This document shows positions 3,324 to 47,788 of a stretch of 64,000 nucleotides of DNA, in pieces (positions within the stretch are counted from its first letter, which is position 1; every line of letters begins with the position of its first letter). Origin of the DNA: an uncultured delta proteobacterium (GTDB lineage: Bacteria > Desulfobacterota > RBG-13-43-22); contig CAWDKY010000014.1 in assembly GCA_963802945.1 (NCBI GenBank), forward strand, positions 96,001 through 160,000, given 5' to 3'. The position numbers were made by a program, and so were the translations under genes. Below the pieces are notes generated by a model. It ran no database searches. It was given only the letters and a program-made list of their open reading frames with translations, and was not told the origin of the DNA.

Positions 3324-3402
3324 GGCACGAGAATAAAGAGTAAGCCCTGATAGATGATGAACATTTAGGAAAAGTGTTCATTGTCCGTCAGGGCTTTTTT
3401 GT
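3324..3402 (+). promoter_or_regulatory. 5' leader with intrinsic terminator, putative GlpP-responsive antiterminator site
   Basis: Purine-rich GAGAATAAAGAG, then a ~25-bp hairpin with several G:U pairs (AAGCCCTGA...TCAGGGCTT) and a T-tract, between promoter and glpA; glpP lies in the same cluster. Confidence 0.75.
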
Positions 3403-3503
3403 TCCAAGATTTTTCAGGACTGCTTGAAAGGGAAGTATTTGAAAACGATTTTTTTATTATCGGAAGCGGGAGAGGATAATGGCCTTGTCCAAGGGGGTGC
3501 CTT

Positions 3504-5051
3504 TTGAAGACCCAGGTACTCATTATCGGGGGAGGGGCTACCGGCACCGGACTGGTGCGGGACCTGGCTCTTCGCGGTGTTCAATGCCTTCTGGTTGAAA
3601 AAAAGGACATCAATGCCGGGGCTTCGGGAGCGAATCACGGTCTTTTGCACAGCGGGGGCCGATACGTCGCCTCCGATCCCACCGCCGCCCAAGAATGCCG
3701 AAATGAAGCTGACATAATCAGACGTGTCGCTCCTCAATGTATTGAAGATACGGGCGGTCTTTTCGTGGCTGTGGAAGGCGACGATGAGAAATTTATCGCC
3801 GATTTTCCCCGCATGTGCGAACGGTCCGGAATCCTCGCGGAAGCGGTTGATCTAAAGGAAGCCCGTATTCTGGAACCGGCCCTTTCGGAAAAGATCATCG
3901 CCGCCTACAAGGTAAGAGATGGGGCCATTGATCCTTTCAAGCTTTCCCTGGATAATCTTTCCCAAGCCCAAGAACTGGGATCCATCCTTTTACGTCATAC
4001 CATGGTGTCAGCCTTCGACATTCGGGAATCAAAAATCAAATCGGTCCATTTACAACAGATCCAGACTGGAGAGGAGATGGTGGTTGAAGCCGATATGGTG
4101 GTCAATGCCGCCGGTGCCTGGGCAGGGCTGGTGGCCGGTTTGGCTGGAATTTCCATCCCAGTCCTCTATTCCAAAGGAAGCCTGGTCATTACCCACAATC
4201 GGATTGCCCGGAGGGTGATCAACCGTTTGCGTGCTGCCTCCAATGCCGATATCTTGGTGCCGGGAGGCACGGTTTCAATTTTGGGAACCACTTCAATCAG
4301 AATAGAAAATCCGGACGAAGTCTATCCAACAGTTGAAGAGATCGATTTGATGATTGAAGATGCCAAGGCCATGATCCCGGCTTTGGAGACGACAAGATAC
4401 ATCCGTGCCTACAGCGGCGTACGGCCGCTTATCGGATCGCTAACCAGCGGAGATGACCGCAGTGTGAGTCGCGGCTTTGCCCTCATGGATCACGGGGCTC
4501 AGGGTATAGATAATTTTATCACCATAACTGGCGGAAAGCTGACCACCTATCGCCTGATGGCCGAAAAAGCGGCCGATTTGGTTTGTCATCGTCTGGGGAT
4601 TTCAAGATCATGTCTAACCGGAACCGAACCGTTGCCAGCGTCACAGCTCGCTCAATGGACCGAACCTGCTTTGGCTCCTAAGACCTGGCTGAAAGGTCAT
4701 AGTCCGGAGGATCTTCTCCATTGTGAATGTGAGATGGTTCCCAAAAGTACGGTCGATGCCATCATTGCATCCCTTCATCAGCAGGGAGGGAGGGTTGATC
4801 TTCAGGGCATCGGCTTGCGCAGCCGGATTGGCAAAGGTCCCTGTCAGGGCGCTTTTTGCGGACCGCGACTTAGTGCTTATCTCTTTGAAAAAGGAGAGCT
4901 TGATCCCGGTCAATGCTTAGACGGTCTTCGGGATTTCGTCCGCAGCCGTTGGAAAGGCCTCTATCCTATCCTCTGGGGAGAGCAGCTTCAACAGTCTGAA
5001 TTATTGGAGGCGATGCATTGCGGAATACTGGGTTTGGAATTGGAGGAGTGA
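3504..5051 (+). CDS. glpA: Anaerobic glycerol-3-phosphate dehydrogenase subunit A
   Basis: IIGGGATG FAD motif, GASGANHGLLHSGGRY, ITGGKLTTYRLMAE, C-terminal BFD-like CECE...GPCQGAFC. Confidence 0.93.
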   Translation: MKTQVLIIGGGATGTGLVRDLALRGVQCLLVEKKDINAGASGANHGLLHSGGRYVASDPTAAQECRNEADIIRRVAPQCIEDTGGLFVAVEGDDEKFIADFPRMCERSGILAEAVDLKEARILEPALSEKIIAAYKVRDGAIDPFKLSLDNLSQAQELGSILLRHTMVSAFDIRESKIKSVHLQQIQTGEEMVVEADMVVNAAGAWAGLVAGLAGISIPVLYSKGSLVITHNRIARRVINRLRAASNADILVPGGTVSILGTTSIRIENPDEVYPTVEEIDLMIEDAKAMIPALETTRYIRAYSGVRPLIGSLTSGDDRSVSRGFALMDHGAQGIDNFITITGGKLTTYRLMAEKAADLVCHRLGISRSCLTGTEPLPASQLAQWTEPALAPKTWLKGHSPEDLLHCECEMVPKSTVDAIIASLHQQGGRVDLQGIGLRSRIGKGPCQGAFCGPRLSAYLFEKGELDPGQCLDGLRDFVRSRWKGLYPILWGEQLQQSELLEAMHCGILGLELEE

Positions 5052-5165
5052 AAAAGGATTCACCTAAACGGGATACTGGACTCCAATTTGAGTAATTACT
5101 TTAGGAAAGATTGTATATCAAAATTGATGGGTAAACTAGCCTGCCATAAACGCAGGTGTATTATC

Positions 5166-5227
5166 GTCATGCCGGACTTGATCCGGCATCCAGTTTTTTT
5201 CTGGCTTACGGCTTTCGCCGGAATGAC
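5166..5227. repeat. GTCA...TGAC palindromic REP-like element (family copy 1)
   Basis: GTCATGCCGG...CCAG / CTGG...TTCGCCGGAATGAC; related copies at 7204, 14777 and 50881. Confidence 0.75.
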
Positions 5228-5283
5228 TATCTCGAAATACACCACAAGGAAAATGCCTTTAGAAGTTTAAAACTCAAATTAAG

Positions 5284-6578
5284 ATGCATGATCTGGAACC
5301 TATCAAAGTCGATTTGACTGTCATCGGGGCCGGAATGGCCGGTATGGCGGCCACGCTGTTTGCAGTCAACCGTGGTCTATCCGTGGCCCAGGTGGGTCGT
5401 ACCAGTGAGATCGGATTTGCCAGTGGTTTATTCGATCTGCTCGGTGTACATCCCATGAGCGAAGGGAATCAGTGGGATGATCCCTGGGCAGGTATCGAGG
5501 CCCTGGTAAAGGATATCCCTGAACATCCTTATGCCCGATTGAGTAAAGAAGAAATCCGGTCCGCCCTTAGCGAACTGCTAGATTTTTTAGAAGGGGCAGG
5601 TCTTCCCTATTCCAGAAATCCCGATCGTAATGTCAGGATCTTTTCTTCCCTCGGGACGATCAAAACGACCTATGGTACACCCAGGACCATGTGGGCAGGG
5701 GTGCAGGCCCTGGAGCAGAAACGCCCCTGTCTGATCGTGGATTTCAAAGGGCTTAAAGGGTTCAGTGCCGAATTGATTGTACATAACCTACGCTCCCGGT
5801 GGCCGGGTTTACGCGCCGTCAGGATTACTTTCCCTGGAACGGAACGCAGAGAGGAAGTATTACCGGAACACTATGGCCAATGCCCTGATCCTGGCAGGCA
5901 ATCGGAAAAAGCTTGCCCAGCGGATACGACCGGAAATCAAAGATGCACAGAGCATAGGTCTGCCGGCCGTTTTGGGATTGTATCAATCCCCCAAAACGGC
6001 TTCTGATCTATCGGAATTGATCGGCGTTCCGGTCTTTGAAATATCCTACCATGCCGCCTTCTATTCCAGGGCTGCGCCTAAAAGAAGCCTTTGAACGGGG
6101 ACTGCGAGAAAGAAGGCCCTATTATTTTTCTCAAAAGAGAGTGGTTGAAACACGACTGGAGCCGGGCGGGGAATTTAAAATCGGTATTGAAAGTCCAACC
6201 GGAAAGCAGGTGATTTTATCCCAGGGGATCATTCTGGCCTCAGGGCGATTTATCGGCGGGGGATTGAGGGCCGATCGAAAGCATGTCCGGGAGACGATTT
6301 TTGATTTACCTGTTTCCCAGCCCGAGAGCAGAAATAAATGGCACAGGGAAGACTTTCTTGACTTGCGAGGCCATTCGATCAATCTGGCCGGGGTGGAGAT
6401 TGATGATTATTTCCGTCCGCTGAATCATCATGGCCAATCAGCTTTCAATACCCTGTTTGCAGCGGGTTCGATTCTTGCCCATCAGGATTGGAAACGGACG
6501 AAATGCGGTTCCGGCCTGGCCGTGGCCACGGCCTTCGGGGCAGTAAAGGCTTTTATCAATATCACTCGTAATGGATGA
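5284..6578 (+). CDS. glpB: Anaerobic glycerol-3-phosphate dehydrogenase subunit B, split by two +1 frameshifts (~5871, ~6044)
   Basis: VIGAGMAG, LGTIKTT, LPAVLG, PVFEI|PTMPPSIPGLRL, LASGRFIGGGL, CGSGLAVAT spread over three frames. Confidence 0.88.
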
Positions 6579-7158
6579 ATGGTATTTAAAGATGACGGAT
6601 TCCATAACACCGGGATATGAATTTACCGAAGAAGTCGAAAAAGGCGGATCCTTTAAGGTTGAGGTCTGCTTCCAATGCCGGAAATGCACCACCGGCTGTC
6701 CGGTGGCCTTTGCCATGGATCTGTTTCCCGACGAAGTCATCCGAATGGTGATTTTAGGTCAACGGGAAAAGGTGCTGAGTTGCCAAACGATCTGGATATG
6801 CTCAGCCTGTGAAACCTGTACTACCCGTTGTCCCAACGAGGTAAAAATCGCCGAACTCATGGATCATCTCAAAGAAATGGCTATAAGGGAGAACGTTCCC
6901 TGTCCAAAGCCGCAGGTTTTAAGTTTTCATAAAATTTTTTTAAAAAATATAGAAAAGCGGGGACGGATATTTGAATCAACGCTTCTGCCGGCCTATCTGC
7001 TTCGAAGCGGTCAGCTCCTTAAAAGATGGAAAGACGGCACTTGGCTGGCAGAACTCGGATTAGGATGGAAGTTGTTTTCCAAAGGGAGAATGCCCCTGTG
7101 GCCGCATAAAAATAAAGGGAAAAAGGAAATCAGCAAGATTTTATTCAGGGGTAAATGA
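6571..7158 (+). CDS. hdrC: Heterodisulfide reductase subunit C-like 2x[4Fe-4S] protein
   Basis: CFQCRKCTTGCP and IWICSACETCTTRCP motifs; adjacent to hdrB (alternative start 6592). Confidence 0.85.
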   Translation: MDEWYLKMTDSITPGYEFTEEVEKGGSFKVEVCFQCRKCTTGCPVAFAMDLFPDEVIRMVILGQREKVLSCQTIWICSACETCTTRCPNEVKIAELMDHLKEMAIRENVPCPKPQVLSFHKIFLKNIEKRGRIFESTLLPAYLLRSGQLLKRWKDGTWLAELGLGWKLFSKGRMPLWPHKNKGKKEISKILFRGK

Positions 7159-7203
7159 AAAAGCAGTCATCTAAGTCCATGTTGACAAATAGTTTCCAAG
7201 ATT

Positions 7204-7335
7204 GTCACCCCGGCGGACCCCGGATCAAGTCCGGGGCAGGCGCCGGGGTCCAGAAATCAAACGGGAGAACTTTGAATAAAATTAACGGCAGGAACCGTAC
7301 TCAGTCACCTGGATTCCGGCGTTCGCCGGAATGAC
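7204..7335. repeat. GTCA...TGAC palindromic REP-like element (copy 2)
   Basis: GTCACCCCGGCG...GGGTCCAG ... CTGGATTCCGGCGTTCGCCGGAATGAC. Confidence 0.75.
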
Positions 7336-7394
7336 GTTAATTTGGTTTTGGCGAAATTTAGAAATTCATAAAATAATTGTATACGAAAAGAAAT

Positions 7395-8252
7395 ATGAAA
7401 TTTTCTTATTATCCAGGGTGTTCGCTTAAAGGGACGGCCAAAGATTATGCCGAGTCGATCCTGGGCATCTGCCAGTCGCTTCAGATCGAACTGGAAGAAA
7501 TTCCGGATTGGAACTGTTGCGGGGCAACCGCGGCCCACAGTATTGATCATCAGGCGGGTATTGCTCTGGCTGCCAGGACCTTGAGTCTGGCGGCTAAAAT
7601 GCCCCATTCCCAAATGCTGGTCCCTTGCCCTTTGTGTTTCAACCGATTGAAAACGGCCTCTTATGCCTTACAGCAGGATCAAAATAATCGCTATAAAATA
7701 AAATTACCGGATTCGGTTCCAAAAATTTTGGATCTGGCAAATTTTTTTGCTACCGAAACGATGTTGGAAATCACGGCCCAAAAAATTCAAAAGCCCCTTA
7801 GGGGGTTAAAAGTGGTCTGCTATTACGGATGCATGGCCAACCGGCCGCCGAAGATCACGGAAGCTAAAGATTTTGAAAATCCTCAAGCTCTGGATCGTAT
7901 CGTGGCCAATTTGGGTGGCACGGTAATCCCCTGGCCTTATAAAACAGATTGTTGCGGTGCCTCGCAGGCCTTTTCGTTGGAGGATATTGAAAACAAACTG
8001 GTGAAAAAACTTTTAGATATGGCCCGGCGTGTCGGAGCACAGGGCATCGTGGTTTCCTGCCAGATGTGTCAGGCCAATCTGGATATGCATGATAAAAGGG
8101 CCGGAGGTGGGTCGAAAAATTCATCGTCTTTGCCGGTGTATTATTTTACCGAGTTGATTGGACTGGCCTTGGGAGTGAAGGGAGTTCAGAAATCGTTGTC
8201 GCGTCATATCGTTGATCCCATACCCCTTCTAAAAGGTCTGGGACTTTTTTGA
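7395..8252 (+). CDS. hdrB: Heterodisulfide reductase subunit B-like (two CCG domains)
   Basis: YYPGCSL, DWNCCGA, PCPLC, YYGC, TDCCGAS, SCQMCQANLD. Confidence 0.88.
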   Translation: MKFSYYPGCSLKGTAKDYAESILGICQSLQIELEEIPDWNCCGATAAHSIDHQAGIALAARTLSLAAKMPHSQMLVPCPLCFNRLKTASYALQQDQNNRYKIKLPDSVPKILDLANFFATETMLEITAQKIQKPLRGLKVVCYYGCMANRPPKITEAKDFENPQALDRIVANLGGTVIPWPYKTDCCGASQAFSLEDIENKLVKKLLDMARRVGAQGIVVSCQMCQANLDMHDKRAGGGSKNSSSLPVYYFTELIGLALGVKGVQKSLSRHIVDPIPLLKGLGLF

Positions 8253-8524: not shown

Positions 8525-11500
8525 TTGAATAACCAAATCCAAAAAATCGGATCCATTACCGTCATCGGCGGCGGCATCGCCGGGATCCAGGCGGCTTTGG
8601 ACGCAGCCAATTCGGGATTTAAGGTTTATCTGTTGGAAGAAAATTCCACCGTTGGCGGCGCCATGGCCCAACTGGATAAGACCTTTCCCACCAACGACTG
8701 TTCTTCCTGCATGATGGGGCCCAAAATGGTAGAACTCGCCAATCATCCCAACATTGAAATCCTCACCCGCACTTCGCTCGAGGGTATCGATGGCAGGCCC
8801 GGAAATTTCACTATTAAGATCAAGCGTGAACCGAGATTTATCAGGGAAGACCGCTGTACCGCCTGCGGTGAATGCGCCCGGGTTTGCCCGGTGGAATTGC
8901 CGGCCGACTTCAACTTGGGTTTGAATTCCCGCAAAGCCGTCTATCAGCATTTCCCCCAGGCCGTTCCAGCGGCCTTTGCCATTGACAAGACCGGCGTATC
9001 GCCCTGTAAGCAGGCTTGCCCGGCAGGAATAAGCGTACAGGGCTATATCTCTCTAATCGCCCAGGGGCGTTATCAAGAGGCCCTGCAACTGATCAAACAA
9101 AATAACCCTTTCCCAGCCATATGCGGTCGTGTCTGCACGCACCCCTGTGAAGAGGCTTGTAACCGAAGGCAGTTAGACGAGCCGGTAGCCACCGAATATT
9201 TGCATCGCTTTGTGGCCGATCTTGATCTGAAGGCCGAATCACCCTGCCTTCCGGCCAAAAAAGAATCCAAGAACAAGAAGGTGGCGGTGGTCGGTGCCGG
9301 TCCCGGCGGTCTTAGCGCCGCTTATTATCTGGCTGTTGAAGGGTATGAGGTCTGTGTCTTTGAAGCTATGGCGGAACCCGGCGGCTGGATGCGTTACGGT
9401 ATTCCCGAGTATCGTCTGCCCCGGAATATTTTACAGGCCGAGATCGAGATCATCAGAAAATTGGGAGTGCAAATACGTACCGGAGTATCTCTGGGCCAGG
9501 ACTTTTCCATCGGCAGTCTGCGGCAGGATGGCTATGCAGCCGTTTTCCTCGCCGTTGGGACTCAAAATGGCAGACTGTTGAATGTTCCGGGGGAGAATTT
9601 AAAGAATGTTTACTCCGGCGGTGATTTCCTCAAGGCGATCAACAGCGGGCAGGGCCTGACTCTTGGGACCAGGGTGGCGGTGATCGGCGGTGGTAATGTG
9701 GCCATGGATGCGGCCCGCACTGCCCTGCGCCTTGGAGCCCAAGAAGTCCATGTGCTCTATCGGCGCAGCCGCAAAGAGATGCCGGCCAACGAGGAAGAAA
9801 TTGCGGAGGCGCAGGAGGAAGGGATTCAGTTCCATTTTTTAACGGCTCCGGTTGAATTATTGCCGAACGATGTTGGGCGGGTGGGACAAATTCGCTGCCA
9901 GCGAATGAAGCTGGGAGAACCTGATTCCAGCGGCCGGCCGAGGCCGGTGCCGATTCCCGATTCCGAATATGAGATGCCCATTGACTGTGTGATCAGCGCC
10001 ATCGATTTTACTACCGATCTCAGTTGCCTTGATCAGGACCATGAAAACAACAAGCCGGCCGTTACCCGCCGAGGAACATTGGTCGCAGATCCGGTTACTA
10101 TGGCTACATCTATTCCTGGAATCTTTGCCGGAGGGGATGCGGTTACTGGTCCTGCCACCGTAGTTGAAGCCGTCCGGGCCGGCCATGAAGCCGCAATTTC
10201 TATAGGCCGGTATTTATGTGGTGAGGATTTGGCGGCAGGCCGGGGAAGAGATTGCCGGCCAGCCGAAATTCCCGCCGGGCCTCAGGCGTCGCTTCAAAGG
10301 ACCAAGATGCCGCAACTGGCTCCTGATGTGCGCAAACGTTCTTTTGAGGAAGTGCAAACAGGGTTTAACGAAGCTCAGGCCCGGGAAGAAGCCAAGCGAT
10401 GCCTGCAGTGCGGTTTATGCAGCGAATGCTATCGCTGTCTGGAGGTCTGTACGGCTCAGGCGGTGGACCACGATATGGAGCGATGTTATGAAGAATTACA
10501 AACCGGGGCGGTTATTGTAAGCGCCGGCTTTCAGCCTTTTGACGCCCGGCTCAAGCCTGAATACGGTTACGGTTTGTGGCCCAATGTTATGACCACTCTG
10601 GAATACGAACGGATGCTTTCGGCGGCCGGCCCTTTTTCCGGCCGCATCCAGCGCCTTTCGGATGGGAAAAAGGTGCACCGAATGGCCTGGATTCTATGTG
10701 TCGGATCGCGGGATGTTGGCATCGATCGAAATTATTGTTCCTCGGTCTGCTGCATGTCGGCCACCAAGCAGGCCATGATCACCAAAGAACATGATCCTCA
10801 AATCGAGACCGCGATTTTTTTTATCGACCTGCGGGCTCAGGGCAAAGGCTTCGACCGTTTCTATGAACGCGCCGAATCGGAATCCGGCGTGCGATATGTG
10901 CGTTCTATGGTTTCACGAGTGGTCCCGATACCGGAAACCGACCGGCTGCAAGTCACTTACAGCAACGATGAGCACCGGATACAAATGGAAGAGTTCGATC
11001 TGGTGGTCCTGTCCGTAGGTTTATGCGCCCATCCATCGGCGATCAACCTGGCTGAAAGGATAGGTCTTGAGCTTAATCCCTATGGATATTGCGCCACCCA
11101 TCCGTTGGACTCAACGGCGACATCACGGCCCGGTATCTTTGTGGCCGGGGTTTTTCAAGGGCCCAAGGATATTCCGGAGACGGTCCAACAGGGCAGCAGT
11201 GCAGCGGGAGGCGCCACCGCCTTGCTTTCCGATGTGCGCGGTTCGCGTATCAGCCTGCCGGTGCAGACACCGGAGCGGGATGTGACCGGCGAGCTGCCGC
11301 GCATCGGGGTTTTTGTTTGTCACTGCGGAACCAACATCGCCGGTGTAGTGGACGTGGACCGTATCGTCGATTATGTCAAGTCTTTGCCCAATGTGATTTA
11401 TGCCGCCAACGCCATGTTTGCCTGCTCGACCGACCAGCAGCGCGAAATCAAAAGAGTCATTGATGAGCATCGCCTCAATCGTCTGGTGGTGGCCTCCTGT

Positions 11501-12955
11501 ACGCCACGCACGCATGAACCGCTGTTTCGCAACACGTTACGTGAGGCCGGGCTCAACCCGTATCTTTTTGAACTAGCTAATATCCGCGAACATGACTCCT
11601 GGGTGCATCGAAACGAACCGGAAGCGGCGACCCAAAAGGCCCTCGACCTGGTGCGCATGTCTGTTGCCCGGGCGCGGCTTTTGCAACCTTTAGCGGAAAC
11701 GCATTATCCGGTTGTTCAAAGGGCTTTGGTGATCGGAGGGGGACTGGCCGGACTAACGGCAGCTTTGACCATTGCCGAGCAAGGGTATGAGTCTGTGCTG
11801 ATAGAAAAAACACCTGAATTAGGAGGGAATGCCCGCACCCTATATTATACGGAAGACGGTGCGGATCCGGCCCAATATGTTCAGGACTTGATTCATAAAA
11901 TCAAAACAGAGCCGTTGATTACCGTCTACACCAAGGCCGAAGTGGTTGAAACCCAGGGCGTTTGTGGCCATTTGACCACCACGATTTTGAAGGAGGATGA
12001 AGCGAAAGAGATCGTTCATGGCGTGACCATTGTTGCTGTAGGCGGCCAGGAATACCAGCCCGAGGAATATCTTTATGGAAAAGACCACCGGGTGATGACT
12101 CGAAAGGAGTTTGAATCTCTGTTGGCTTTGAATCCCGAGGAGGCTAAACACTATTTGCGGGTAGTGATGATTCAGTGTGTGGGCTCCAGGGAACCCGATC
12201 ATCTCTATTGCAGCCGGGTATGTTGTACCGGGGCAGTGAAAAACAGTTTGAAGCTCAAATCGTTAAATCCGGATGCCCAGGTTTCGATTCTGTATAGAGA
12301 TATGCGTACTTTCGGATTTAGAGAAAGTTATTACTACCAGGCACGGCTCCAAGGGGTGCGCTTTTTCCCGTATGTGAGGGACCAGAAACCGGAAGTCACC
12401 TTGGAGAATAACGAGCTGCAGGTAAAGGTATTTGATCAACAACTTCGCCTTCCGGTGCAGTTGAAAGCGGACCTGCTGGTTTTGAATACGGCCATCCGAC
12501 CCAACCCCAAGGAGAAAGAACTGGCAGGAATCCTGCGTCTTCCCCTGGATCAGGATGGGTTTTTTATGGAGGCCCATCCGAAACTGAGGCCTCTGGATTT
12601 TATCAAACCGGGTTATTATTTGTGTGGTCTGGCCCAAGGGCCCAAGTTCGCTGCTGAGTCCATCACCCAGGCCCGGGGGGCCGCTGCCAGGGCTATGACC
12701 ATCCTTTCCAAAGAAATGATGACCGCCGAGGGGATGGTTGCCCAGGTGGATACGGATCTCTGCCGGGGTTGCTGCGAATGTGAGAAGGCCTGTTTGTTTG
12801 AGGCCATCCGTGTGGAACAAGACGAGGATGGGCGGAAGGCGGCTGTGGTCAACAAAAGCCTATGCACGGGGTGCGGGGCCTGTAATGTGGCTTGCCCTAC
12901 AGGTGCAGCATCTCCGGCCCATTTTCAGGATGACCAGATTGATGGGAATGATTAG
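8525..12955 (+). CDS. hdrA: Large HdrA-like flavo-Fe-S protein (HdrL type) with inserted GltD-like NAD(P)H-binding module; probable frameshift in the last codons
   Basis: GGGIAGIQAAL, LDKTFPTNDC, PCKQACPAG/NPFPAICGRVC, VIGGGNVAMD, two CVGSR..CSxVCC repeats, GVFVCHCG, ANIRE, C-terminal ferredoxin. Confidence 0.9.
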   Translation: MNNQIQKIGSITVIGGGIAGIQAALDAANSGFKVYLLEENSTVGGAMAQLDKTFPTNDCSSCMMGPKMVELANHPNIEILTRTSLEGIDGRPGNFTIKIKREPRFIREDRCTACGECARVCPVELPADFNLGLNSRKAVYQHFPQAVPAAFAIDKTGVSPCKQACPAGISVQGYISLIAQGRYQEALQLIKQNNPFPAICGRVCTHPCEEACNRRQLDEPVATEYLHRFVADLDLKAESPCLPAKKESKNKKVAVVGAGPGGLSAAYYLAVEGYEVCVFEAMAEPGGWMRYGIPEYRLPRNILQAEIEIIRKLGVQIRTGVSLGQDFSIGSLRQDGYAAVFLAVGTQNGRLLNVPGENLKNVYSGGDFLKAINSGQGLTLGTRVAVIGGGNVAMDAARTALRLGAQEVHVLYRRSRKEMPANEEEIAEAQEEGIQFHFLTAPVELLPNDVGRVGQIRCQRMKLGEPDSSGRPRPVPIPDSEYEMPIDCVISAIDFTTDLSCLDQDHENNKPAVTRRGTLVADPVTMATSIPGIFAGGDAVTGPATVVEAVRAGHEAAISIGRYLCGEDLAAGRGRDCRPAEIPAGPQASLQRTKMPQLAPDVRKRSFEEVQTGFNEAQAREEAKRCLQCGLCSECYRCLEVCTAQAVDHDMERCYEELQTGAVIVSAGFQPFDARLKPEYGYGLWPNVMTTLEYERMLSAAGPFSGRIQRLSDGKKVHRMAWILCVGSRDVGIDRNYCSSVCCMSATKQAMITKEHDPQIETAIFFIDLRAQGKGFDRFYERAESESGVRYVRSMVSRVVPIPETDRLQVTYSNDEHRIQMEEFDLVVLSVGLCAHPSAINLAERIGLELNPYGYCATHPLDSTATSRPGIFVAGVFQGPKDIPETVQQGSSAAGGATALLSDVRGSRISLPVQTPERDVTGELPRIGVFVCHCGTNIAGVVDVDRIVDYVKSLPNVIYAANAMFACSTDQQREIKRVIDEHRLNRLVVASCTPRTHEPLFRNTLREAGLNPYLFELANIREHDSWVHRNEPEAATQKALDLVRMSVARARLLQPLAETHYPVVQRALVIGGGLAGLTAALTIAEQGYESVLIEKTPELGGNARTLYYTEDGADPAQYVQDLIHKIKTEPLITVYTKAEVVETQGVCGHLTTTILKEDEAKEIVHGVTIVAVGGQEYQPEEYLYGKDHRVMTRKEFESLLALNPEEAKHYLRVVMIQCVGSREPDHLYCSRVCCTGAVKNSLKLKSLNPDAQVSILYRDMRTFGFRESYYYQARLQGVRFFPYVRDQKPEVTLENNELQVKVFDQQLRLPVQLKADLLVLNTAIRPNPKEKELAGILRLPLDQDGFFMEAHPKLRPLDFIKPGYYLCGLAQGPKFAAESITQARGAAARAMTILSKEMMTAEGMVAQVDTDLCRGCCECEKACLFEAIRVEQDEDGRKAAVVNKSLCTGCGACNVACPTGAASPAHFQDDQIDGND

Positions 12956-13139: not shown

Positions 13140-13668
13140 ATGTCTTTAACTGAACCACCTGAAATCATCGCCTTCGTTTGTCACTGGTGTGCCTATGCCG
13201 GGGCCGATCTGGCGGGGATTTCCCGTATCCAGTATCCGCCGAATGTACGTCTGGTGCGGGTCATGTGCACGGGACGAATTCATTCAGGCTTTCTCCTGCA
13301 TGCCTTTTTCGAAGGTGCGCAAGGCGTTTTGGTTTCCGGGTGTCACCTCGGCGACTGCCATTACCTGGAAGGTAATGTGAAATGCCAAAAGGTGATCGAA
13401 GAAACCTGGGAGTATCTGCGGCTGTTTAGGGATTGACGAAGGGCGGCTCAGGATCAAATGGATTTCCGCCTCGGAAGGGGCCGAGTTTGCCAAGGAGATC
13501 CAAGAGTTTGTTTCATTTCTCCAAGGGCTGGGAGAAAAACCTCTCGCCGATAAAAGAAAATGGGATCTTAAAGGACTGCCATCAGCGGATAATATCGGTC
13601 TTGATAAAGGGCCACCGCTGTTAAGAGATGAGCAGATTGCCAACCTGCATGGAATGCAGCAGTTGTAG
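13140..13668 (+). CDS. mvhD: MvhD-like [2Fe-2S] subunit; frameshift at ~13425, probably fused in frame to the downstream Fe-S/CCG gene
   Basis: FVCHWCAYAGAD, RVMCTGR, GCHLGDCHY; the +1 frame continues LGIDEGRLRIKWISASEGAEF and stays open to 13668. Confidence 0.85.
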
Positions 13669-14734
13669 CGGCACCTGCCCGGTCAGCCGTGAAAATCCTC
13701 TATTTTCCCCGAAACAGATCATTAATCGGACGGCCATGGGACTTGAGGCCGATATCCTTCAAAGCCGCGAGGTCTGGGCCTGTCTGGGGTGTGCTCAATG
13801 CAATACACGCTGTCCGGCCCTGATCGATATCTCGGAATTCAACCGCTCCTTTCGATACCGAGCACGGGAAGCCGGGAATCCGCCAATGGAAAGCCATCAC
13901 GGCATTCATCAAACCATTGCCCGATTGCAGAGGCATCCCCTTTCGCAAAAACGTACGGACTGGGCGGAAAAGACCGGGAATTTCAAATCAACCGGGGACT
14001 ATTTTTATTTTGTAGGCTGTTTGCCTTATTTTGATATCACCTTTCGCTATCTAAATATATCACCGCTGGAAAGTGCCCGAAGCGTACTGACTCTATTGAA
14101 TCGAATCGGAATCGAACCGGTCATCAGCAATGACGAAAGGTGCTGCGGGCACGATGCCCTTTGGTGCGGCGAAGAGGACACTTTCCTGGAGTTGGCCTTA
14201 TGGAACCTTGAGATCCTAAAGGCCTCGGGAGCCAAAACCGTCCTATTCAGTTGTCCGGAAGGCTATTCGACCTTTAAATATTATTATCCCAAATATGTTG
14301 GAGAACTGCCTTTCGAGGTTGTCCATCTGGCCGAATTTTTTGCCCGTGAAATACCCAAGTCAGGGTTGAAGCTGAAACCGTTTTCCGATGGTGCGGTCAC
14401 CTATCAGGACCCTTGCCGGTTGGGACGCTGGGCCGGGATTTATGAACCGCCCAGGGAATTAATAAAATTGGTTTCAGGAACGAAACTCATTGAAATGGAG
14501 AGGACCAGAGAGAATGCCCTGTGCTGCGGAACCAGCGCCTGGATGGAATGTTCCAGTTGTTCCAAGGTCATTCAGACCGAACGACTCATGGAAGCTCAGC
14601 AAACCGGTGCGAAGAAACTGATTACCGCTTGTCCTAAATGCCGGATTCATCTGACCTGTGCTAAACTGGGAGAAAATATTGATATCGGCGTGAAAGACAT
14701 TTATACTTTTTTGGCAGAACACCTAGAAGATTAG
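13628..14734 (+). CDS. HdrD/GlpC-like 2x[4Fe-4S] plus two-CCG-domain protein
   Basis: CMECSSCSGTCP, WACLGCAQCNTRCP, FVGC, ERCCG, TYQDPCRLGR, LCCG, TACPKC. Confidence 0.85.
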   Translation: MSRLPTCMECSSCSGTCPVSRENPLFSPKQIINRTAMGLEADILQSREVWACLGCAQCNTRCPALIDISEFNRSFRYRAREAGNPPMESHHGIHQTIARLQRHPLSQKRTDWAEKTGNFKSTGDYFYFVGCLPYFDITFRYLNISPLESARSVLTLLNRIGIEPVISNDERCCGHDALWCGEEDTFLELALWNLEILKASGAKTVLFSCPEGYSTFKYYYPKYVGELPFEVVHLAEFFAREIPKSGLKLKPFSDGAVTYQDPCRLGRWAGIYEPPRELIKLVSGTKLIEMERTRENALCCGTSAWMECSSCSKVIQTERLMEAQQTGAKKLITACPKCRIHLTCAKLGENIDIGVKDIYTFLAEHLED

Positions 14735-14870: not shown

Positions 14871-16352
14871 ATGGCCAAATACATCGGTGCAGTCGATCTG
14901 GGTACGACCAGTAATCGTTTCATCGTTTTCGATCACACCGGCCAAATCGTCGGGCTGTCGCAAAAAGAACATCAACAGATCTTTCCCAAGCCGGGCTGGG
15001 TGGAACATGATCCCCTGGAGATCTGGAACAACACCCAGGAGGTCATCCGCGAAGCCTTGGCCAAAACCAATGTTACCGGAGATGATATTGCGGCCATCGG
15101 TGTGACCAACCAGCGCGAGACCACGGTTGTCTGGGAGAAAGCTACCGGCAAACCTATTTACAATGCCATCGTTTGGCAGGATACACGCACGGATGTTATC
15201 TGCAACGAACTGGCCAAGCATGGAGGTCAGAATCGATGGCGCGGGAAAACCGGCCTTCCTCTGACCACCTATTTTTCAGGCCCTAAAATAAAATGGATTC
15301 TGGACAACGTCCCAGGTGCCCAAGGGAAGGCGGAGAACGGCGAACTGCTTTTCGGAAATATCGATACTTGGTTCATCTGGAATCTGACCGGCGTGCACGT
15401 CACCGACGTAACCAATGCTTCGCGGACGCTCCTGATGAATCTGAACCATCTTGACTGGGATGATGAAATACTGCAGTTGCTGAATATCCCTCGGGCCATG
15501 CTGCCGAAGATTTGTTCATCATCGGAGGTCTATGGCCAGGCCAAGGGTATCCTCAAGGGTGTGCCGGTGGCTGGTGATCTGGGCGACCAGCAAGCGGCCC
15601 TGTTCGGACAGACCTGTTTCAATCCCGGCGAGGCCAAGAACACTTACGGAACCGGATGTTTTATGCTTCTGAATATGGGCGAACGTCCGGTCCCCAGTAC
15701 CAGCGGACTGCTGACCACCGTCGGTTATAAGATCGGCCATCAGAAGGCCGTTTATGCCCTGGAAGGTTCGATCGCTATCGCCGGCGCCCTGGTGCAATGG
15801 TTGCGCGACAACCTGGGCCTGGTTTCCAAATCAGCCGAGGTGGAGGCTTTGGCCCGCACGGTCGAAGACAACGGCGGTATTTATTTCGTACCGGCCTTTT
15901 CCGGGCTGTTTGCCCCTTACTGGAGGTCTGATGCCCGGGGAGTTATCGTCGGTCTGACGCGTTTCATCAATAAAGGTCATCTGGCACGGTCCGTGCTGGA
16001 AGCCACTGCCTTTCAGACCCGTGAGGTTCTTGATGCTATGGAAAAAGACTCGGGTGTACGGCTGAAGGCCCTCAAGGTGGACGGCGGGATGGTTTTCAAC
16101 GAACTGCTGATGCAATTCCAGGCGGATCTATTGGATGTGCCGGTTATCCGCCCAAAGGTCGCTGAAACCACAGCCCTGGGTGCCGCCTACGCCGCCGGGC
16201 TGGCCGTTGGTTTCTGGAAAAATCTCGATGAACTGCGACTCAACTGGGGAAAGGACAAAGAGTGGAAACCCCAAATGGACGTATCCAAACGTGACCAACT
16301 TTACGCCGGCTGGAAAAAAGCCGTCTCACGGACTTTCGACTGGATAGGATAA
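14871..16352 (+). CDS. glpK: Glycerol kinase
   Basis: [53 protein letters not shown]. Confidence 0.97.
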
Positions 16353-16517
16353 AAGCATCCGCTTGACTTTTTGCCTGTCTATCAGATATCTTTTAATTAA
16401 AGTTCGGATGTCGTTGGTTACCCTCGATCCGGGAATCGCCTCTGTGGCAGATAAAGGTAATAGGCAGCCGGAAGGCGGGGGAGTTTTTCTGAAGGGTGTG
16501 CCGAAAGGAGACTGACA

Positions 16518-39413: not shown

Positions 39414-39441
39414 GGGAGTTCCTCCTGTAAAAAGAATTTAA

Positions 39442-43019: not shown

Positions 43020-43190
43020 TAGGTCAAAGACTACTTTGATCTCATGGGTGTTCCTATGGATGAAGCGGATTTTCTGGAGCACCCCGGCTGCTGCGATTGG
43101 TACGACACCGATGTTTCCCAGGACATCCTGCACTACCAGAATACCTCCTATCCGGATCATCTGGACCGGCTCCGAAAAGAAGTGGAACAA
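43020..43190 (+). pseudogene. Gene remnant, possibly the C-terminus of an NAD-dependent epimerase-like protein
   Basis: Open stretch KDYFDLMGVP...DWYDTDVSQDILHYQNTSYPDHLDRL without a convincing start. Confidence 0.35.
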
Positions 43191-43325
43191 ATGATGGAGG
43201 AGTGATCCTGGGTCGAGAAAAGGCCGCCGATTTCAAAAAATCCTGTTCAAAAAAATCCTTGACATACATGAGTAACTTATATAACAGTTCCTTTTAAAAG
43301 GAAAAATCTGAATTTAGATATTTAA

Positions 43326-43404
43326 GGCAAGAGTATAAAGAGAAAGCCGTGGTAGACAATGAGCACTCAATTGAAGTGGTTTTTTCTATCAGGGCTTTTT
43401 TGTT
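43326..43404 (+). promoter_or_regulatory. Second copy of the glpA leader terminator (putative GlpP target)
   Basis: GGCAAGAGTATAAAGAGAAAGCCGTGGTAGA...TCTATCAGGGCTTTTTTGTT versus the 3324 copy; TTGACA at 43259 upstream. Confidence 0.72.
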
Positions 43405-43671
43405 TTTTGAGGGATAAAGTGAGTGCAAACATTGTAAAAGCTAAAAGCTTAAAAGCCTAAAAACGGATTTGATTACTTAAGGCGCACAAGCAGGTAATGG
43501 TTTGAAAATAATAACGAAAGGAGGTTAGAGAAAAGAACGAAAAGGTATAGGCCTTGTCCCGATGAGATATCTTTTGAAGGCTGCTTTTTTTATTGTTGTC
43601 TGGGTGTTATGAAAACAGGTCATTGAGTCTTTGGGTGAATAACAACCTTTTCCTTTAAAAGGAGGTTTTTT

Positions 43672-45468
43672 ATGAGTTCAAATTCCAAAAAACTGTTTAA
43701 TTGGCCTATGGTGATTGCCCTGATACTCATTTTGGGAGGGGGGGTTTTTGCCTATCTGGTCCAGACAGGTGGTGGCGACATCGCCATCCGAGATGTCCGA
43801 TTTATGGGGGCTAACAATACCATGATGAGTGCATTACTCTATATACCCAAGGGAGTAGATGCCAAACATAAAGCCCCGGGTATTTTAGCCATCCACGGGT
43901 ATATTAATTCCCGTGAGACGCAGGACGGCTTTGCTATTGAATTTGCTCGTCGAGGATATGTTGTCCTGGCCCTGGATCAGACAGGCCATGGATATTCCGA
44001 TCCCCCGGCCTTGTCCAATGGTTTTGGTGGCCCAGATGGGCTGAAATATTTGCGGTCACTGGATATGGTTGACCTTGACAACATAGGGCTGGAAGGACAC
44101 TCCATGGGGGGTTGGGCCATCGGTATTGCTATGGGCCTGATGAAGGATGGTTACAAGTCTTGTGTTTTGGCCAGCACCTCTACCGGAACTTATGGCGCTC
44201 CGGATGGTACTCCGACTTTTCCGCGAAACATGGGCCTCATCTACGCCAAGTATGACGAGTTTTCACAGTTAATGTGGAATTCTCCGATTCCCAGGGATGC
44301 TGTTAAAGGCGACAAGATGAAAAAGGTTTTCGGTACCACGGAAGATGTGGTGGTTGGAAAGCTTTATGGCTCCATTGAAGATGGCACCGCCCGGAAGCTG
44401 TATCAACCTTCCACGACCCACGCCCGAGTCCATCTCTCCAGAGTGGGCATCGGTGATGCCGTTGAATGGTTCCAGATGACTTTGAAAGGGGGGAAAAACC
44501 TGCCCCCATCGAACCAGACCTGGTACTGGAAAGAGTTTTTTAACTTAGTGGCCTTGGTCGGGATGGTCATCCTGCTTGTAGCCTTGGGAGGATACCTGCT
44601 CAAGACCGATTATTTTAAAGAGCTCCAAGAGGAACCTGCTCCCCAAAAATCCCTATCCGGAGGAGGATGGTGGGGCAATGCGGTGATCATGGTATTCCTG
44701 CCGCTCGTAATGTATTTGTGGGCCTGGATATATCATTGGAACAGCAAAGGGTTAGCCAAACCCACCTTCATATGGCCGGAGCAAATTACAACGGTCATTA
44801 TGTTTTGGGCTTTTGGCGTGGCCATCATTTCGCTGATTCTCTTCTTGGTGTGGTATTTCCTGACCAAAGAGAAATCGGGAGCCACCTTGGTTAATTTTGG
44901 TTTGACCTGGAAGGATGCAGGACTGCAATGGGGGAAAATCGGTAGGTCGTTTCTGCTGTCCTTCATTGTGATCTTCGTTGCCCATCTGACATTGGCTATC
45001 TCGACCTGGTGGTTTCAGACGGACTACCGTTTTTGGGTCTTTGCCATAAAGCCGCTGGATGCTCTTCATTTCGGCATCACTCTGGGTTATATCATCCCCT
45101 TTCTCTTCTATTTTATTATACTGGGGATTGTATTGCACGGGCAGATGCGACTGGGAAAACCTGATGCACCCCTGGGCATGGGAAAAGAGACGATTATCAA
45201 TATACTCCTACTGATCGTCGGATATTTCATTTTTCTGGCTTACCATTATATCCCGCTTTTTGCCGGTGGGACACTGGGATTTACAGACCGTTCCGCAGCG
45301 TTATTTGGTATCGTCATGTTCCAGTATATTCCTATATTCGCTATCGTAGGGTGGGTCTCAACCTATTTCTATCGAAAAACAGGTCACATCTATGTGGGCG
45401 CCTTTTTGTGCGCCATGCTGATTACCTGGATCATCGTATCAGGCCAGGCGATTCATTTTAAGTACTGA
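43672..45468 (+). CDS. Membrane-bound alpha/beta hydrolase (N-terminal TM, catalytic domain, multi-TM C-terminus), paralog 1
   Basis: HGYINS, DQTGHGYS, GHSMGG, D-E-F and TH; about 8 C-terminal TM helices. Confidence 0.85.
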   Translation: MSSNSKKLFNWPMVIALILILGGGVFAYLVQTGGGDIAIRDVRFMGANNTMMSALLYIPKGVDAKHKAPGILAIHGYINSRETQDGFAIEFARRGYVVLALDQTGHGYSDPPALSNGFGGPDGLKYLRSLDMVDLDNIGLEGHSMGGWAIGIAMGLMKDGYKSCVLASTSTGTYGAPDGTPTFPRNMGLIYAKYDEFSQLMWNSPIPRDAVKGDKMKKVFGTTEDVVVGKLYGSIEDGTARKLYQPSTTHARVHLSRVGIGDAVEWFQMTLKGGKNLPPSNQTWYWKEFFNLVALVGMVILLVALGGYLLKTDYFKELQEEPAPQKSLSGGGWWGNAVIMVFLPLVMYLWAWIYHWNSKGLAKPTFIWPEQITTVIMFWAFGVAIISLILFLVWYFLTKEKSGATLVNFGLTWKDAGLQWGKIGRSFLLSFIVIFVAHLTLAISTWWFQTDYRFWVFAIKPLDALHFGITLGYIIPFLFYFIILGIVLHGQMRLGKPDAPLGMGKETIINILLLIVGYFIFLAYHYIPLFAGGTLGFTDRSAALFGIVMFQYIPIFAIVGWVSTYFYRKTGHIYVGAFLCAMLITWIIVSGQAIHFKY

Positions 45469-45477
45469 GTAAGTCTT

Positions 45478-45558
45478 CAGGGTCAGCCCTTGACGTGTAA
45501 GGCGTTTAGTCGGTTTTGTAAGGTATATGAGAAATAAAAAAGTCAAGGGCTGACCCTG
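45478..45558. repeat. 17-bp inverted-repeat REP-like element
   Basis: CAGGGTCAGCCCTTGAC ... GTCAAGGGCTGACCCTG. Confidence 0.8.
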
Positions 45559-45629
45559 ATCCTTCCTTTTACAATTGATTGATTTTAAATCCATTAACAG
45601 GTAAAATATTTATGGTTAAATAGCTTAGC

Positions 45630-45713
45630 TTTCTTGTTGGCAACTCACACCCTTAGGAGTTCCAATGAAAGAACATTAAACCCCATTTCTTTATAAAGAA
45701 GTGGGGTTTCCTT
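45630..45713 (+). ncRNA. Unrecognised structured leader or sRNA motif, copy 2
   Basis: TTTCTTGTTGGCAACTC...GAGTTCCAATGAAAGAA...ACCCCATTTCTTTATAAAGAAGTGGGGTTT; TTGATT-N17-TAAAAT promoter upstream. Confidence 0.6.
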
Positions 45714-45994
45714 ATTCAGCAATATTGGAAAAATAGTCAAGTCGGGTCCAACGAGAATTGGAGATTTCTATAACTGAGATCTCTCGACAGGTAGAGGTTG
45801 GAACAACCGGGGTGGCCATGGCGACTAAAATGGTGGGGCGGAAAACTTAAGTGAATGAAGTGGACAACGTCCCCTTCTGCGTCTGCGTGGTCTTTTCTGT
45901 CAGGGCTTTTTTTATTGGAAAAACAAAATTGGATCTGAGGGGAAAGGAGTATAACACTCATTTACTGATAACCATTAAATATTAAGGAGGTCTT

Positions 45995-47788
45995 ATGAAA
46001 GAGACAATTGACAAGAAGCCATTAACCCTTTTAGTATTTGCCTTAATATTAATCCTGGTAGGAGGCCTTTTGGCCTACTGCATCCAAACCAGCGGAGGTG
46101 TTTCAATTAAAGATGTACGGTTTGTGGGTAGTGAAGGAAAATTGGTCAGCGCCCTCCTTTACGTTCCGAACGGAGTAACTCCACAAAAGCCGGCACCGGC
46201 CATCGTCGCTACACATGGTTATATCAACTCCCGAGAAACCCAAGACGGGTTTGCCATTGAATTTGCCAGACGCGGTTTTGTCGTTCTGGCCCCTGATCAA
46301 CCCGGACATGGTTTTTCCGATCCACCGTGCTATGTCAACGGTTTTGGTGGCCTGGACACCCTGAAATATTTGCGAACGTTGGACATCGTTGATCCCAACA
46401 ATATCGGTCTGGAAGGTCATTCCATGGGAGGCTGGGCATCGGTGATTGCCGCCGGAGCAAACAAAGATGGGTATAAATCTTTGGTCCTGGCAGATTCTTC
46501 AACCGGAACATTGGGGGCCCCAAATGGAACTGCGGATTTTCCGCGCAACATGGCTCTCATCTTCGCCAAATATGATGAGTTTGCCCCTTTCATGTGGGGT
46601 TCGCTAATTCCGGCGGATATCGTAAAAACAGACAAACTTAAGAAAGCTTTTGGAACTACAGAAACCGTAGAAGTCGGTAAACTGTATGGTTCCATCGAGA
46701 AGGGCACAGCCAGAAAGCTTTATCAGCCGAACATGACCCATGCCCGCGTGCATTTCTCCATAGCGGGCATTGGGGATGCCGTTGAATGGATGCAGGCCAC
46801 CTTGAAAGGCGGCAAGAACATACCCCCGTCCAATCAGATTTGGTACTGGAAAGAGCTCGGCAACTTGATCGCCTTGATCGGAATGGTCATTCTCCTCATG
46901 GCCCTGGGGGGATATTTGCTTAAAACCGATTACTTTAAAGAGCTCCAAGAGGAACCCGCCCCGAAAAAATCCATGTCCGGAGTAGGATGGTGGATCGGTG
47001 CGGCGATCATGGTGCTTCTGCCGATTTTTCTCTATTGGTGGGCCTGGTGGCAGCATTACGACAGCAATGGGATAGCCAAAGCCTCTTTTATATGGCCGGA
47101 GCAGCTTACCAACGTCATTATGTTCTGGGCCCTTGGTGTGGCTGTGGTTTCGCTGGTGCTTTTCCTTATATGGTATTTCTCGACCAAAAAGAAATCGAAG
47201 GCCACTATGGCCGATTATGGTCTGACTTGGAAGGATAAAGGTCTGAAATGGGGGAAGATCGGCAAGTCCTTCCTGCTGGCTTTCGTTATTGTCTTTATTG
47301 CCCATCTCACCTTAATTATCTCAACCTGGTTGTTTCAAACGGACTACCGTATTTGGGTCTTTGCCGTAAAGCCGCTGGATGCTCTTCATTTCGGCATCTC
47401 TCTGGGTTATGTCATCCCCTTTCTTTTCTATTTTCTCGTTTTGGGGATTGTCTTGCACGGGCAGATGCGCCCGGGTAAACCTGATGCGGTCATAGGAATT
47501 GGAAAAGAAACCATCATCAATATCATCCTGCTGATTCTCGGTTATTTTATTTTTCTGGCCTACCACTATATTCCGCTTTTTGCCGGTGGGACGCTGGGAA
47601 TAAAATTGGGATCCATGATGTTGGGTGGTATCGTTATGTTCCAGTATATTCCCATATTTGCCATCGTCGGCTTGGTTACAACCTATTTCTATCGAAAAAC
47701 AGGTCATATCTATGTGGGCGCCTTTTTGTGCGCCATGCTGATTACCTGGATCATCGTAGCTGGCCAGGCGGTTCATTTTTTCTACTAA
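45995..47788 (+). CDS. Membrane-bound alpha/beta hydrolase, paralog 2
   Basis: Same architecture and long identical blocks with 43672-45468 (GHSMGG; YFYRKTGHIYVGAFLCAML). Confidence 0.85.
   Translation: MKETIDKKPLTLLVFALILILVGGLLAYCIQTSGGVSIKDVRFVGSEGKLVSALLYVPNGVTPQKPAPAIVATHGYINSRETQDGFAIEFARRGFVVLAPDQPGHGFSDPPCYVNGFGGLDTLKYLRTLDIVDPNNIGLEGHSMGGWASVIAAGANKDGYKSLVLADSSTGTLGAPNGTADFPRNMALIFAKYDEFAPFMWGSLIPADIVKTDKLKKAFGTTETVEVGKLYGSIEKGTARKLYQPNMTHARVHFSIAGIGDAVEWMQATLKGGKNIPPSNQIWYWKELGNLIALIGMVILLMALGGYLLKTDYFKELQEEPAPKKSMSGVGWWIGAAIMVLLPIFLYWWAWWQHYDSNGIAKASFIWPEQLTNVIMFWALGVAVVSLVLFLIWYFSTKKKSKATMADYGLTWKDKGLKWGKIGKSFLLAFVIVFIAHLTLIISTWLFQTDYRIWVFAVKPLDALHFGISLGYVIPFLFYFLVLGIVLHGQMRPGKPDAVIGIGKETIINIILLILGYFIFLAYHYIPLFAGGTLGIKLGSMMLGGIVMFQYIPIFAIVGLVTTYFYRKTGHIYVGAFLCAMLITWIIVAGQAVHFFY

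Follow-up and report, generated by a model that had tools for sequence, protein, structure and literature searches.

We analysed a 64,000-nucleotide (nt) stretch of the genome of an uncultured delta proteobacterium (assembly GCA_963802945.1, contig CAWDKY010000014.1, positions 96,001 to 160,000; hereafter the window), in which two similar RNA leaders precede a glycerol operon and a pair of membrane hydrolase genes. The leaders, promoter-like sites and glp and hydrolase genes described here lie on the forward strand, and positions are counted from the first nucleotide of the window. The first leader (3306-3408) stands ahead of glpA (3504-5051; TIGR03377, 569 bits against a cut-off of 552.8), encoding subunit A of anaerobic glycerol-3-phosphate (G3P) dehydrogenase. 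The operon continues through glpB (5284-6578), four genes for Hdr-like electron-transfer proteins, and the glycerol kinase gene glpK (14871-16352; TIGR01311, 759 bits against a cut-off of 590) to its last gene, glpP, which encodes a G3P-responsive antiterminator (16518-17102). The presence of glpP at 16518 had been reported in an earlier reading of this DNA, hereafter the original prediction; its product matches the full PF04309 profile (positions 1-173 of 173) with 195 bits, where the cut-off is 27, and the genome has no other PF04309 gene. The second leader (43308-43409) stands ahead of hyd1 (43672-45468), which encodes a membrane-anchored alpha/beta hydrolase with a GHSMGG motif and eight C-terminal membrane helices, and hyd1 is followed by its paralogue hyd2 (45995-47788). 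The original prediction proposed that GlpP acts on both leaders.

Two leaders in the window share sequence, fold and upstream signals

The two leaders were said to match almost base for base at both ends, and their alignment bears this out: identity is 84% over 90 columns, with the 5′-most 31 nt and the last ~20 nt nearly identical and the tops of the hairpins differing. As had also been described, each leader folds into a long hairpin followed by six U residues, with folding energies of −38.4 kcal/mol (z −8.2) for the glpA leader and −26.1 kcal/mol (z −3.7) for the hydrolase leader. In the glpA leader, the 5′ box UUGGGGC (3320-3326) and two purine repeats, GAGA (3329-3332) and AGAG (3337-3340), precede the terminator hairpin (3342-3394) and its U tract (3395-3400). 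The hydrolase leader has the same order of parts, with the box UUUAAGGC at 43322-43328, GAGU at 43331-43334, AGAG at 43339-43342, the terminator hairpin at 43344-43395 and the U tract at 43396-43401. GCCCUGA (3344-3350), in the 5′ arm of the glpA terminator, has two possible partners, the 5′ box and the 3′ arm; in the nascent 5′ part, pairing with the box gives an alternative hairpin of −9.4 kcal/mol.

Upstream signals are shared as well. Reading the sequence confirmed a TTGACA ~60-65 nt upstream of both boxes (3257-3262 and 43259-43264) and a common element, AAAAGGAAA, ahead of both leaders (3296-3304 and 43297-43305). The first TTGACA opens a promoter-like site (3257-3285) that continues with a 17-nt spacer and TAAATT and agrees with the consensus at 10 of 12 positions. 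The second opens a promoter-like region (43259-43287) with a −10-like TATAAC/TAACAG, likewise read from the sequence, for which the consensus promoter scan gave no entry; this region aligns with the hydrolase-type leaders of three relatives (G005, G008 and G004). In an alignment of 13 leaders from the genus, the −35 element CTTGAC is present in 12. Promoter-like sites are consensus matches here, and the transcription start is not mapped.

A degenerate pattern for the 31-nt 5′ box, GGCANGAGNATAAAGAGNAAGCCNTGNTAGA, matches the window at 3324 and 43326 only, finds nothing in 100 shuffles, and occurs in the whole genome (4,369,355 bases in 72 contigs) at the same two places only, with up to five mismatches allowed. 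Two covariance models, R1 built from the window's two leaders and R2 from 40 leaders, each returned two strong sense-strand matches in the genome (R1, 106 and 106 bits; R2, 89 bits for the hydrolase leader and 88 bits, or more precisely 88.3, for the glpA leader). Apart from the reverse strands of these two hairpins, the remaining scores of either model were at most 24 bits. With two strong copies in the genome, the leader does not behave as the generic high-copy repeat that the original prediction had named as evidence against itself. A weak match of 24 bits (G000:C28:194738) proved to be an ordinary terminator with no 5′ box. No Rfam 15 family reaches its gathering score on the leaders; within the window only a tRNA reaches its own, and the best score in 3200-3520, for a plant microRNA hairpin, is 28.8 bits where 66 would be needed. 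We rejected a leader peptide and translational attenuation, as neither leader holds a plausible small open reading frame (ORF), and dropped as unsupported an outer helix that RNAalifold placed in the two-sequence alignment (columns 5-10 with 83-88).

Downstream of the terminators, the two 5′ untranslated regions (UTRs) have a second short stretch in common, consisting of GGCCTTGTCC, 10-11 nt and CTTTTGAAG (3481-3512 and 43550-43582). On the glpA side it covers the ribosome-binding region and the TTG start; on the hydrolase side it lies 90 nt ahead of the ATG. A past duplication of the whole glpA 5′ region may have left this stretch behind.

The leader recurs ahead of glycerol-linked genes and together with glpP

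Among 101 relatives, R1 matched in the window's own genus only. In the 21 genomes of the class, among which G000 is the window's genome, R2 found 13 sense-strand leaders in eight. Seven of these precede glpA (G000, G001, G004, G005, G008, G011 and G012), four precede a hydrolase gene (G000, G004, G005 and G008), one precedes an ATP-binding cassette (ABC) transporter and one glpP. The hydrolase leader begins ~150 nt past glpP in G008 and 2.7 kb past it in G004. The transporter-linked leader, in G001, is divergent from glpP and lies ahead of genes for two UgpC/MalK-type ATPases, two permeases and two proteins of no family. The copy before glpP itself, in G002, lacks a U tract, which recalls the mRNA-stabilising role that GlpP reportedly has, according to the title of Glatz et al. 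1996.

The same G001 operon (L039, G001:C225, 2024-6355) also encodes a DUF1254/DUF1214 protein; its two proteins without a Pfam or NCBIfam family are of 264 and 580 amino acids (aa), and the larger, found within the genus in G001 only, may be an unusual substrate-binding component.

Leader and glpP occur together. PF04309 is present in six of the 21 class genomes and the leader in all six; of the 15 genomes with no PF04309 match, 13 have no leader. The original prediction had expected a covariance search to hit only glpP-positive genomes, and only upstream of glp or hydrolase genes. The outcome largely agreed with this expectation. The sense-strand matches do all lie upstream of glpA, the hydrolase, the ABC transporter or glpP; the expected restriction to glpP-positive genomes has two apparent exceptions, G011 and G012, to which we return below.

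We also scanned metagenome contigs with a gapped pattern made of the second repeat, the lower stem and the U tract, and assigned the genes downstream of the resulting 36 loci from BLAST matches to the window's proteins and from NCBIfam hits. Downstream lie glpA at 21 loci, a gene for a type-2 G3P-oxidase-like flavoprotein (GlpO/GlpD-like) at five to six, the hydrolase gene at four and a UgpC-type ABC transporter at two; L068, which is cut, was counted among the type-2 oxidase loci by its identical leader. Three loci could not be assessed because their contigs end too early, and all 33 assessable leaders precede one of these four classes of gene, of which three are clearly tied to glycerol or G3P. 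At least 12 of the fetched stretches encode GlpP, and the leader often comes directly after glpP. The gene order is GlpP, leader, hydrolase in L048, L049 and L070, and GlpK, leader, hydrolase in L072, and the L048 hydrolase is followed by a second glpK-like gene. The link between leader and hydrolase recurs independently in G004, G005, G008 and four metagenome contigs. Overall, the leader is common to several operons (glpA, GlpO/GlpD-like, UgpC-type ABC transporter, hydrolase and glpP), and it is this context that ties the hydrolase to glycerol. No other regulator gene recurred beside the leaders in the loci read.

A conserved box could pair with the terminator's 5′ arm

The leaders have a conserved 5′ box (GGGGC-N2-GAGA-N4-AGAG), which could form an alternative hairpin with the 5′ arm of the terminator. 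In an alignment of 40 leaders, GGGY-N2-GAG, which lies upstream of the metagenome search pattern and not in it, is invariant in all 40. The sequence of the lower terminator stem is conserved, and the upper stem varies by group but still pairs; terminator energies range from −21.6 to −35.3 kcal/mol in 39 of the 40. The (U)UGGGGC box is complementary to GCCCUGA, the start of the terminator 5′ arm, in a helix of 7 bp. In the 13 genus leaders, 97.8% of the cells in this helix are paired, against 13-55% with the partner slid by 1-3 columns, and every variant preserves pairing (G-U to A-U, C-G to U-G, U-G to C-G and one U-A to C-G). For every one of the 40 leaders, the nascent 5′ part has the box/5′-arm hairpin as its minimum-energy fold (−2.7 to −13.2 kcal/mol), and the hairpin's loop of 16-18 nt contains GAGA-N4-AGAG. 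Because both use GCCCUGA, the terminator and the alternative hairpin would be mutually exclusive, and such a pair of predicted folds has the logic of a protein-stabilised antiterminator. The comparison of leaders supports the alternative helix as a hypothesis.

A similar logic is known from the ribonucleic antiterminator (RAT)/terminator switches of BglG, SacY and LicT, whose weak, protein-stabilised hairpin extends into the 5′ arm of a strong terminator. The present leaders would share the weak hairpin overlapping the terminator 5′ arm, whereas the candidate protein is of the PF04309 and not the CAT-PRD type, and the sequence bears no likeness to RAT.

Purine repeats lie at terminators beside glpP-family genes elsewhere

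The precedent cited by the original prediction agrees with passages of two papers on Bacillus subtilis, which state that GlpP with G3P disrupts terminators in the glpD, glpFK and glpTQ leaders (PMC9604022, PMC10573289). The window resembles that system in that a PF04309 protein is encoded with glycerol genes, in that one type of leader, with an intrinsic terminator shortly after the promoter, recurs in several operons of the genome, and in that the apparent targets include G3P dehydrogenase and uptake or scavenging genes. It differs in phylum, here Thermodesulfobacteriota by the names on the relatives, and in the dehydrogenase target, an anaerobic glpAB operon with Hdr-like genes and not glpD. 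Unlike in B. subtilis, moreover, glpP lies inside the presumably controlled operon, a membrane esterase is among the candidate targets, and the GGGGC box would form an explicit alternative hairpin.

For comparison we drew on PF04309 loci from chromosome-sized records in a plasmid collection. In the records of Bacillus sp. F19, C. butyricum and Listeria, no glp genes adjoin glpP, and these three added nothing to the comparison. Staphylococcus aureus and Cytobacillus spongiae have the gene order glpP-glpF-glpK-glpD, as in B. subtilis, and in both AGAGA-N3-5-GAGA occurs in the glpF and glpD leaders, where the second repeat opens the 5′ arm of the terminator. The same arrangement is found in the Acetoanaerobium leader after glpP and, as AGAGA-N3-4-GAGA, in two divergent leaders at E. 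coli ygcP; GAGA-type repeats lie at the terminator edge in all seven leaders examined beside PF04309 genes. Our leaders thus have purine (GAGA) repeats at the terminator 5′ edge like those of the Bacillales S. aureus and Cytobacillus, and resemble the E. coli YgcP locus, in a different phylum, in having two leaders with terminators beside a PF04309 gene and GA repeats where the terminator arm opens. In contrast to the Firmicutes and E. coli leaders, however, the second repeat stands 1-2 nt ahead of the terminator stem and not inside it. R1 gives the S. aureus leaders 10-13 bits.

A literature search, in which subscription journals were mostly not covered, found no GlpP regulon or esterase target in Thermodesulfobacteriota or Syntrophales, in keeping with the original prediction, whose author knew of none in this group. 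To our knowledge, GlpP antitermination has been worked out in B. subtilis only, where the protein is said, in the title of Glatz et al. 1998, to bind glpD leader mRNA.

A candidate antitermination regulon responding to glycerol-3-phosphate

We put at roughly three in four the probability that the leaders are RNA targets in an antitermination regulon of GlpP and G3P, and the comparative evidence supports the interpretation first drawn from the window. In such a regulon, a sigma-70-type promoter ~30 nt upstream of the conserved box would start transcription, which in the absence of inducer would stop at the strong intrinsic terminator and yield a leader RNA of ~100 nt. GlpK would phosphorylate glycerol, and the resulting G3P would load GlpP. 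GlpP would then bind the purine repeats GAGA-N4-AGAG in the loop of the weak (U)UGGGGC/GCCCUGA hairpin; held in place, this hairpin would block formation of the terminator, and RNA polymerase would read on. The first leader would control glpA-glpB, the four Hdr-like electron-transfer genes, glpK and glpP, and since glpP lies within the leader-controlled operon, the arrangement would form a positive feedback loop, for which a promoter-like site between glpK and glpP (16363-16392, a consensus match) could supply basal GlpP. The second leader would control a periplasm-facing, membrane-anchored serine esterase and, probably by read-through, its tandem paralogue. Within this scheme we infer the binding by GlpP, G3P as the signal, the alternative hairpin as the antiterminator, and an esterase that frees glycerol from esters.

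Several observations weigh against this interpretation. Two genomes, G011 (96% complete) and G012 (93% complete), hold an intact glpA leader and no PF04309 match, and inspection of the region downstream of glpK in both revealed no glpP remnant; the two assemblies are fragmented, and glpP may have been overlooked. Of the 40 alternative hairpins, that of the window's own hydrolase leader is the weakest (−2.7 kcal/mol, with an A/G mismatch). The original prediction also placed both hydrolases under leader control, and this held in part: an intact leader stands before Hyd1, and before Hyd2 there is only a decayed copy. As the metagenome copies were picked by pattern, the columns of that pattern are invariant by construction. 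In the alternative helix of the 13 genus leaders, a two-sided change occurs in one cell only, and the helix's value for paired cells is matched by 4 of 500 shuffle controls, its covariation measures by 74 of 500; the terminator's own covariation score is matched by 154 of 500. Such pair-count statistics are weak because the leader sequences are close kin. The comparison of GA repeats covers S. aureus, Cytobacillus, Acetoanaerobium and E. coli, with the B. subtilis leaders outside it, and the GAGA-repeat pattern is not enriched locus-wide (L087, 3 against 3.9 expected; L101, 6 against 5.3). Being short and not enriched overall, the repeats draw their weight from position. Finally, acylglycerol or lysophospholipid substrates for the hydrolases, and the feeding of beta-oxidation, are a reasonable guess.

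Both G011 (L096 93-1615, G011:C89) and G012 (L097, G012:C2) keep the glpA leader and its operon, and neither glpP nor the hydrolase was found in them, which suggests that the two genes were lost. In G011, glpK is split by a frameshift, which may be decay.

These two genomes, with a leader and no glpP found, are what a protein-independent riboswitch would produce, the small hairpin itself binding G3P, glycerol or a related compound and GlpP being merely co-encoded. A 5′ box that is invariant in 40 of 40 leaders and a fold with the logic of an expression platform are also in its favour. We nevertheless judge a riboswitch improbable: the conserved part before the terminator is ~30 nt (a stem of 5-7 bp with a loop of 16-18 nt), very small for an aptamer, and matches no Rfam family, whereas the leader is present in six of six PF04309-positive genomes, glpP adjoins many copies, and in Firmicutes and E. 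coli the terminators next to PF04309 genes have GA repeats of the same kind. It is similarly unlikely that a real conditional terminator is opened by some other factor, be it an RNA-binding protein, a small RNA, or a translation- or Rho-linked process, with GlpP having other targets or none here. The apparent tie of GlpP to the leader comes from comparison, and the two genomes with a leader and no glpP found would suit another factor, but the strong co-occurrence and adjacency with glpP argue for GlpP, neither leader of the window encodes a plausible leader peptide, and no other regulator gene recurs in the loci read. A duplicated promoter-terminator cassette or mobile-element leftover without shared regulation, which would agree with the duplicated and decayed leader copy at the hydrolase locus and with the further stretch in both 5′ UTRs, is very improbable, since the genome holds two copies only, leaders always lie in sense before glycerol-linked genes (in eight genomes and 33 of 33 assessable metagenome contigs), no transposase is among the ORFs adjoining them, and drift is seen in the upper stem, with the 5′ box and lower stem conserved.

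With GlpP antitermination as the preferred interpretation, the analysis provides a defined, conserved RNA element together with a model that picks it out cleanly, a concrete hypothesis of the switch in which GA repeats sit in the loop of a terminator-competing hairpin, and a candidate regulon for an uncultured anaerobic lineage of Thermodesulfobacteriota. The glpP gene itself is not new, its NCBI name in related metagenome-assembled genomes (MAGs) already being "glycerol-3-phosphate responsive antiterminator". What is probably new is a target class within known GlpP-type regulation, namely a periplasm-facing serine esterase fused to an eight-helix membrane domain.

The hydrolases are predicted membrane-anchored esterases

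Hyd1 and Hyd2 (598 and 597 aa, 75% mutual identity) are multi-helix GHSMGG hydrolases, as the original prediction described them, each with a single helix at the N-terminus and eight hydrophobic helices at the C-terminus. The topology predicted from hydropathy and the positive-inside rule is an N-terminal anchor helix, a 246-aa domain outside the cytoplasmic membrane and the eight helices. In 46 homologues, H74-G-Y, G141-H-S143-M-G-G, D194 and H249 are invariant, and so are the polar residues D450, R452, H488, N509, H571 and H594 of the membrane part; the Asp and His completing the catalytic triad are putative assignments.

Pfam matches are to Abhydrolase_1, Abhydrolase_6 and Hydrolase_4. In an AlphaFold model of Hyd2 (mean predicted local distance difference test score, pLDDT, 87.3; predicted template-modelling score 0.88), residues 37-275 match serine carboxyl-esterases and lipases with Z scores of 18-19 and root-mean-square deviations of 2.4-2.9 Å over ~200-211 aligned residues, and Foldseek gives E 1e-7 for the esterase domain. 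The fold neighbours are feruloyl esterases, PET46, dienelactone hydrolases, a thermophilic lipase and PETases. Among them is 7q4j, a lipase with a monoacylglycerol intermediate, and feruloyl esterases, PETases and dienelactone hydrolases score equally; the fold match therefore points to an esterase-type hydrolase and names no substrate. On this modelled structure the family is predicted to be serine carboxyl-esterase/lipase-like. The domain is alike in fold to PET46, the L. buchneri feruloyl esterase and the Thermoanaerobacter lipase TTL, but shares 14-23% identity with them and is held between the N-terminal anchor helix and the eight-helix C-terminal domain. That C-terminal domain matches no Pfam family, and an atlas comparison gave no lead above 0.9; folded alone it yields a poor model (pLDDT 55.5), and in fold searches with the whole model the esterase domain filled the match lists.

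The family is large: of 8000 candidates scored, 4035 proteins reach E ≤ 0.001, with generic names such as "alpha/beta fold hydrolase" or "pimeloyl-ACP methyl ester carboxylesterase". The leader would give this family of more than 4000 homologues its first functional context, likely a role in glycerol supply. In the genus, orthologues of at least 66% identity occur in G000, G004, G005 and G008 only, all of them GlpP-positive and each behind a leader; G002, G006 and G007 have paralogues of 31-33% identity without a leader, and G001 has a partial copy of 52% identity at a contig edge, with an in-frame TGA. Hyd2 is the orthologue of the leader-controlled hydrolases of relatives, with 95% identity in G005, 67% in G008 and 66% in G004.

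The decayed leader copy between the two genes (45819-45920) retains the 3′ arm and U tract, GTGGTCTTTTCTGTCAGGGCTTTTTTT; its 5′ arm has diverged and no longer pairs, and R2 scores it at 10 bits (E 0.94). G005 has one hydrolase behind its leader, and in the window Hyd1 sits between leader and Hyd2. The simplest history would be that leader and gene were duplicated and the inner terminator then decayed, and Hyd2 is probably transcribed by read-through from the first leader. Between Hyd1 and Hyd2, 45470-45720 also holds a long inverted repeat (GGGTCAGCCCTTGAC ... GTCAAGGGCTGACCC) and a second hairpin (AAACCCCA...TGGGGTTT), which may or may not stop Hyd1 transcripts.

In G000, which is 100% complete by marker genes, we found neither a gene of the MIP/GlpF family nor an ABC transporter of the G001 type, and the second leader in the genus precedes the hydrolase in G000, G004, G005 and G008 and the transporter in G001 only. 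The lack of such matches prompted a speculative and rather doubtful idea about glycerol entry, that of a fused "esterase-permease" whose periplasmic esterase would free glycerol from acylglycerols or lysolipids and whose eight-helix domain would pass glycerol or the acyl chain inward. It draws on the invariant His, Asp and Asn of the membrane part and on the hydrolase followed by a glpK-like gene in L048. On this idea the protein would be the glycerol-acquisition module of a GlpP regulon in genomes where GlpF and a glycerol-type ABC transporter are absent.

Other genes near the hydrolases may be mentioned. An O-methyltransferase gene (PF00891; 47820-48923) follows the hydrolase here and in G004, and G012 has an orthologue of it without the hydrolase, 2.6 kb after glpK. 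In S. aureus, an annotated 305-aa alpha/beta hydrolase is encoded directly after glpP-glpF-glpK-glpD (L087 13430-14344), a parallel to the esterase link.

The glp operon includes genes for Hdr-like proteins

In the window, glpB consists of two ORFs in different frames (5284-6006 and 6036-6578), both matched by NF003725. G005 has a single ORF of 429 aa, relative to which the window carries an extra A near 6043; the split is either a real frameshift or a MAG assembly error. Between glpB and glpK lie the four Hdr-like genes: an HdrC-like gene (6571-7158), HdrB/CCG (7377-8252), a 1476-aa HdrA/GltD-like flavoprotein (8525-12955) and a GlpC/HdrD-like protein (13628-14734). Their order is the same in G004, G005 and G008. 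The analysis draws attention to an unusual operon in which G3P dehydrogenase is linked with Hdr-like electron-transfer proteins, an arrangement that suggests a coupling of G3P oxidation to a complex of the Hdr type, perhaps electron-bifurcating, instead of a simple GlpC anchor.

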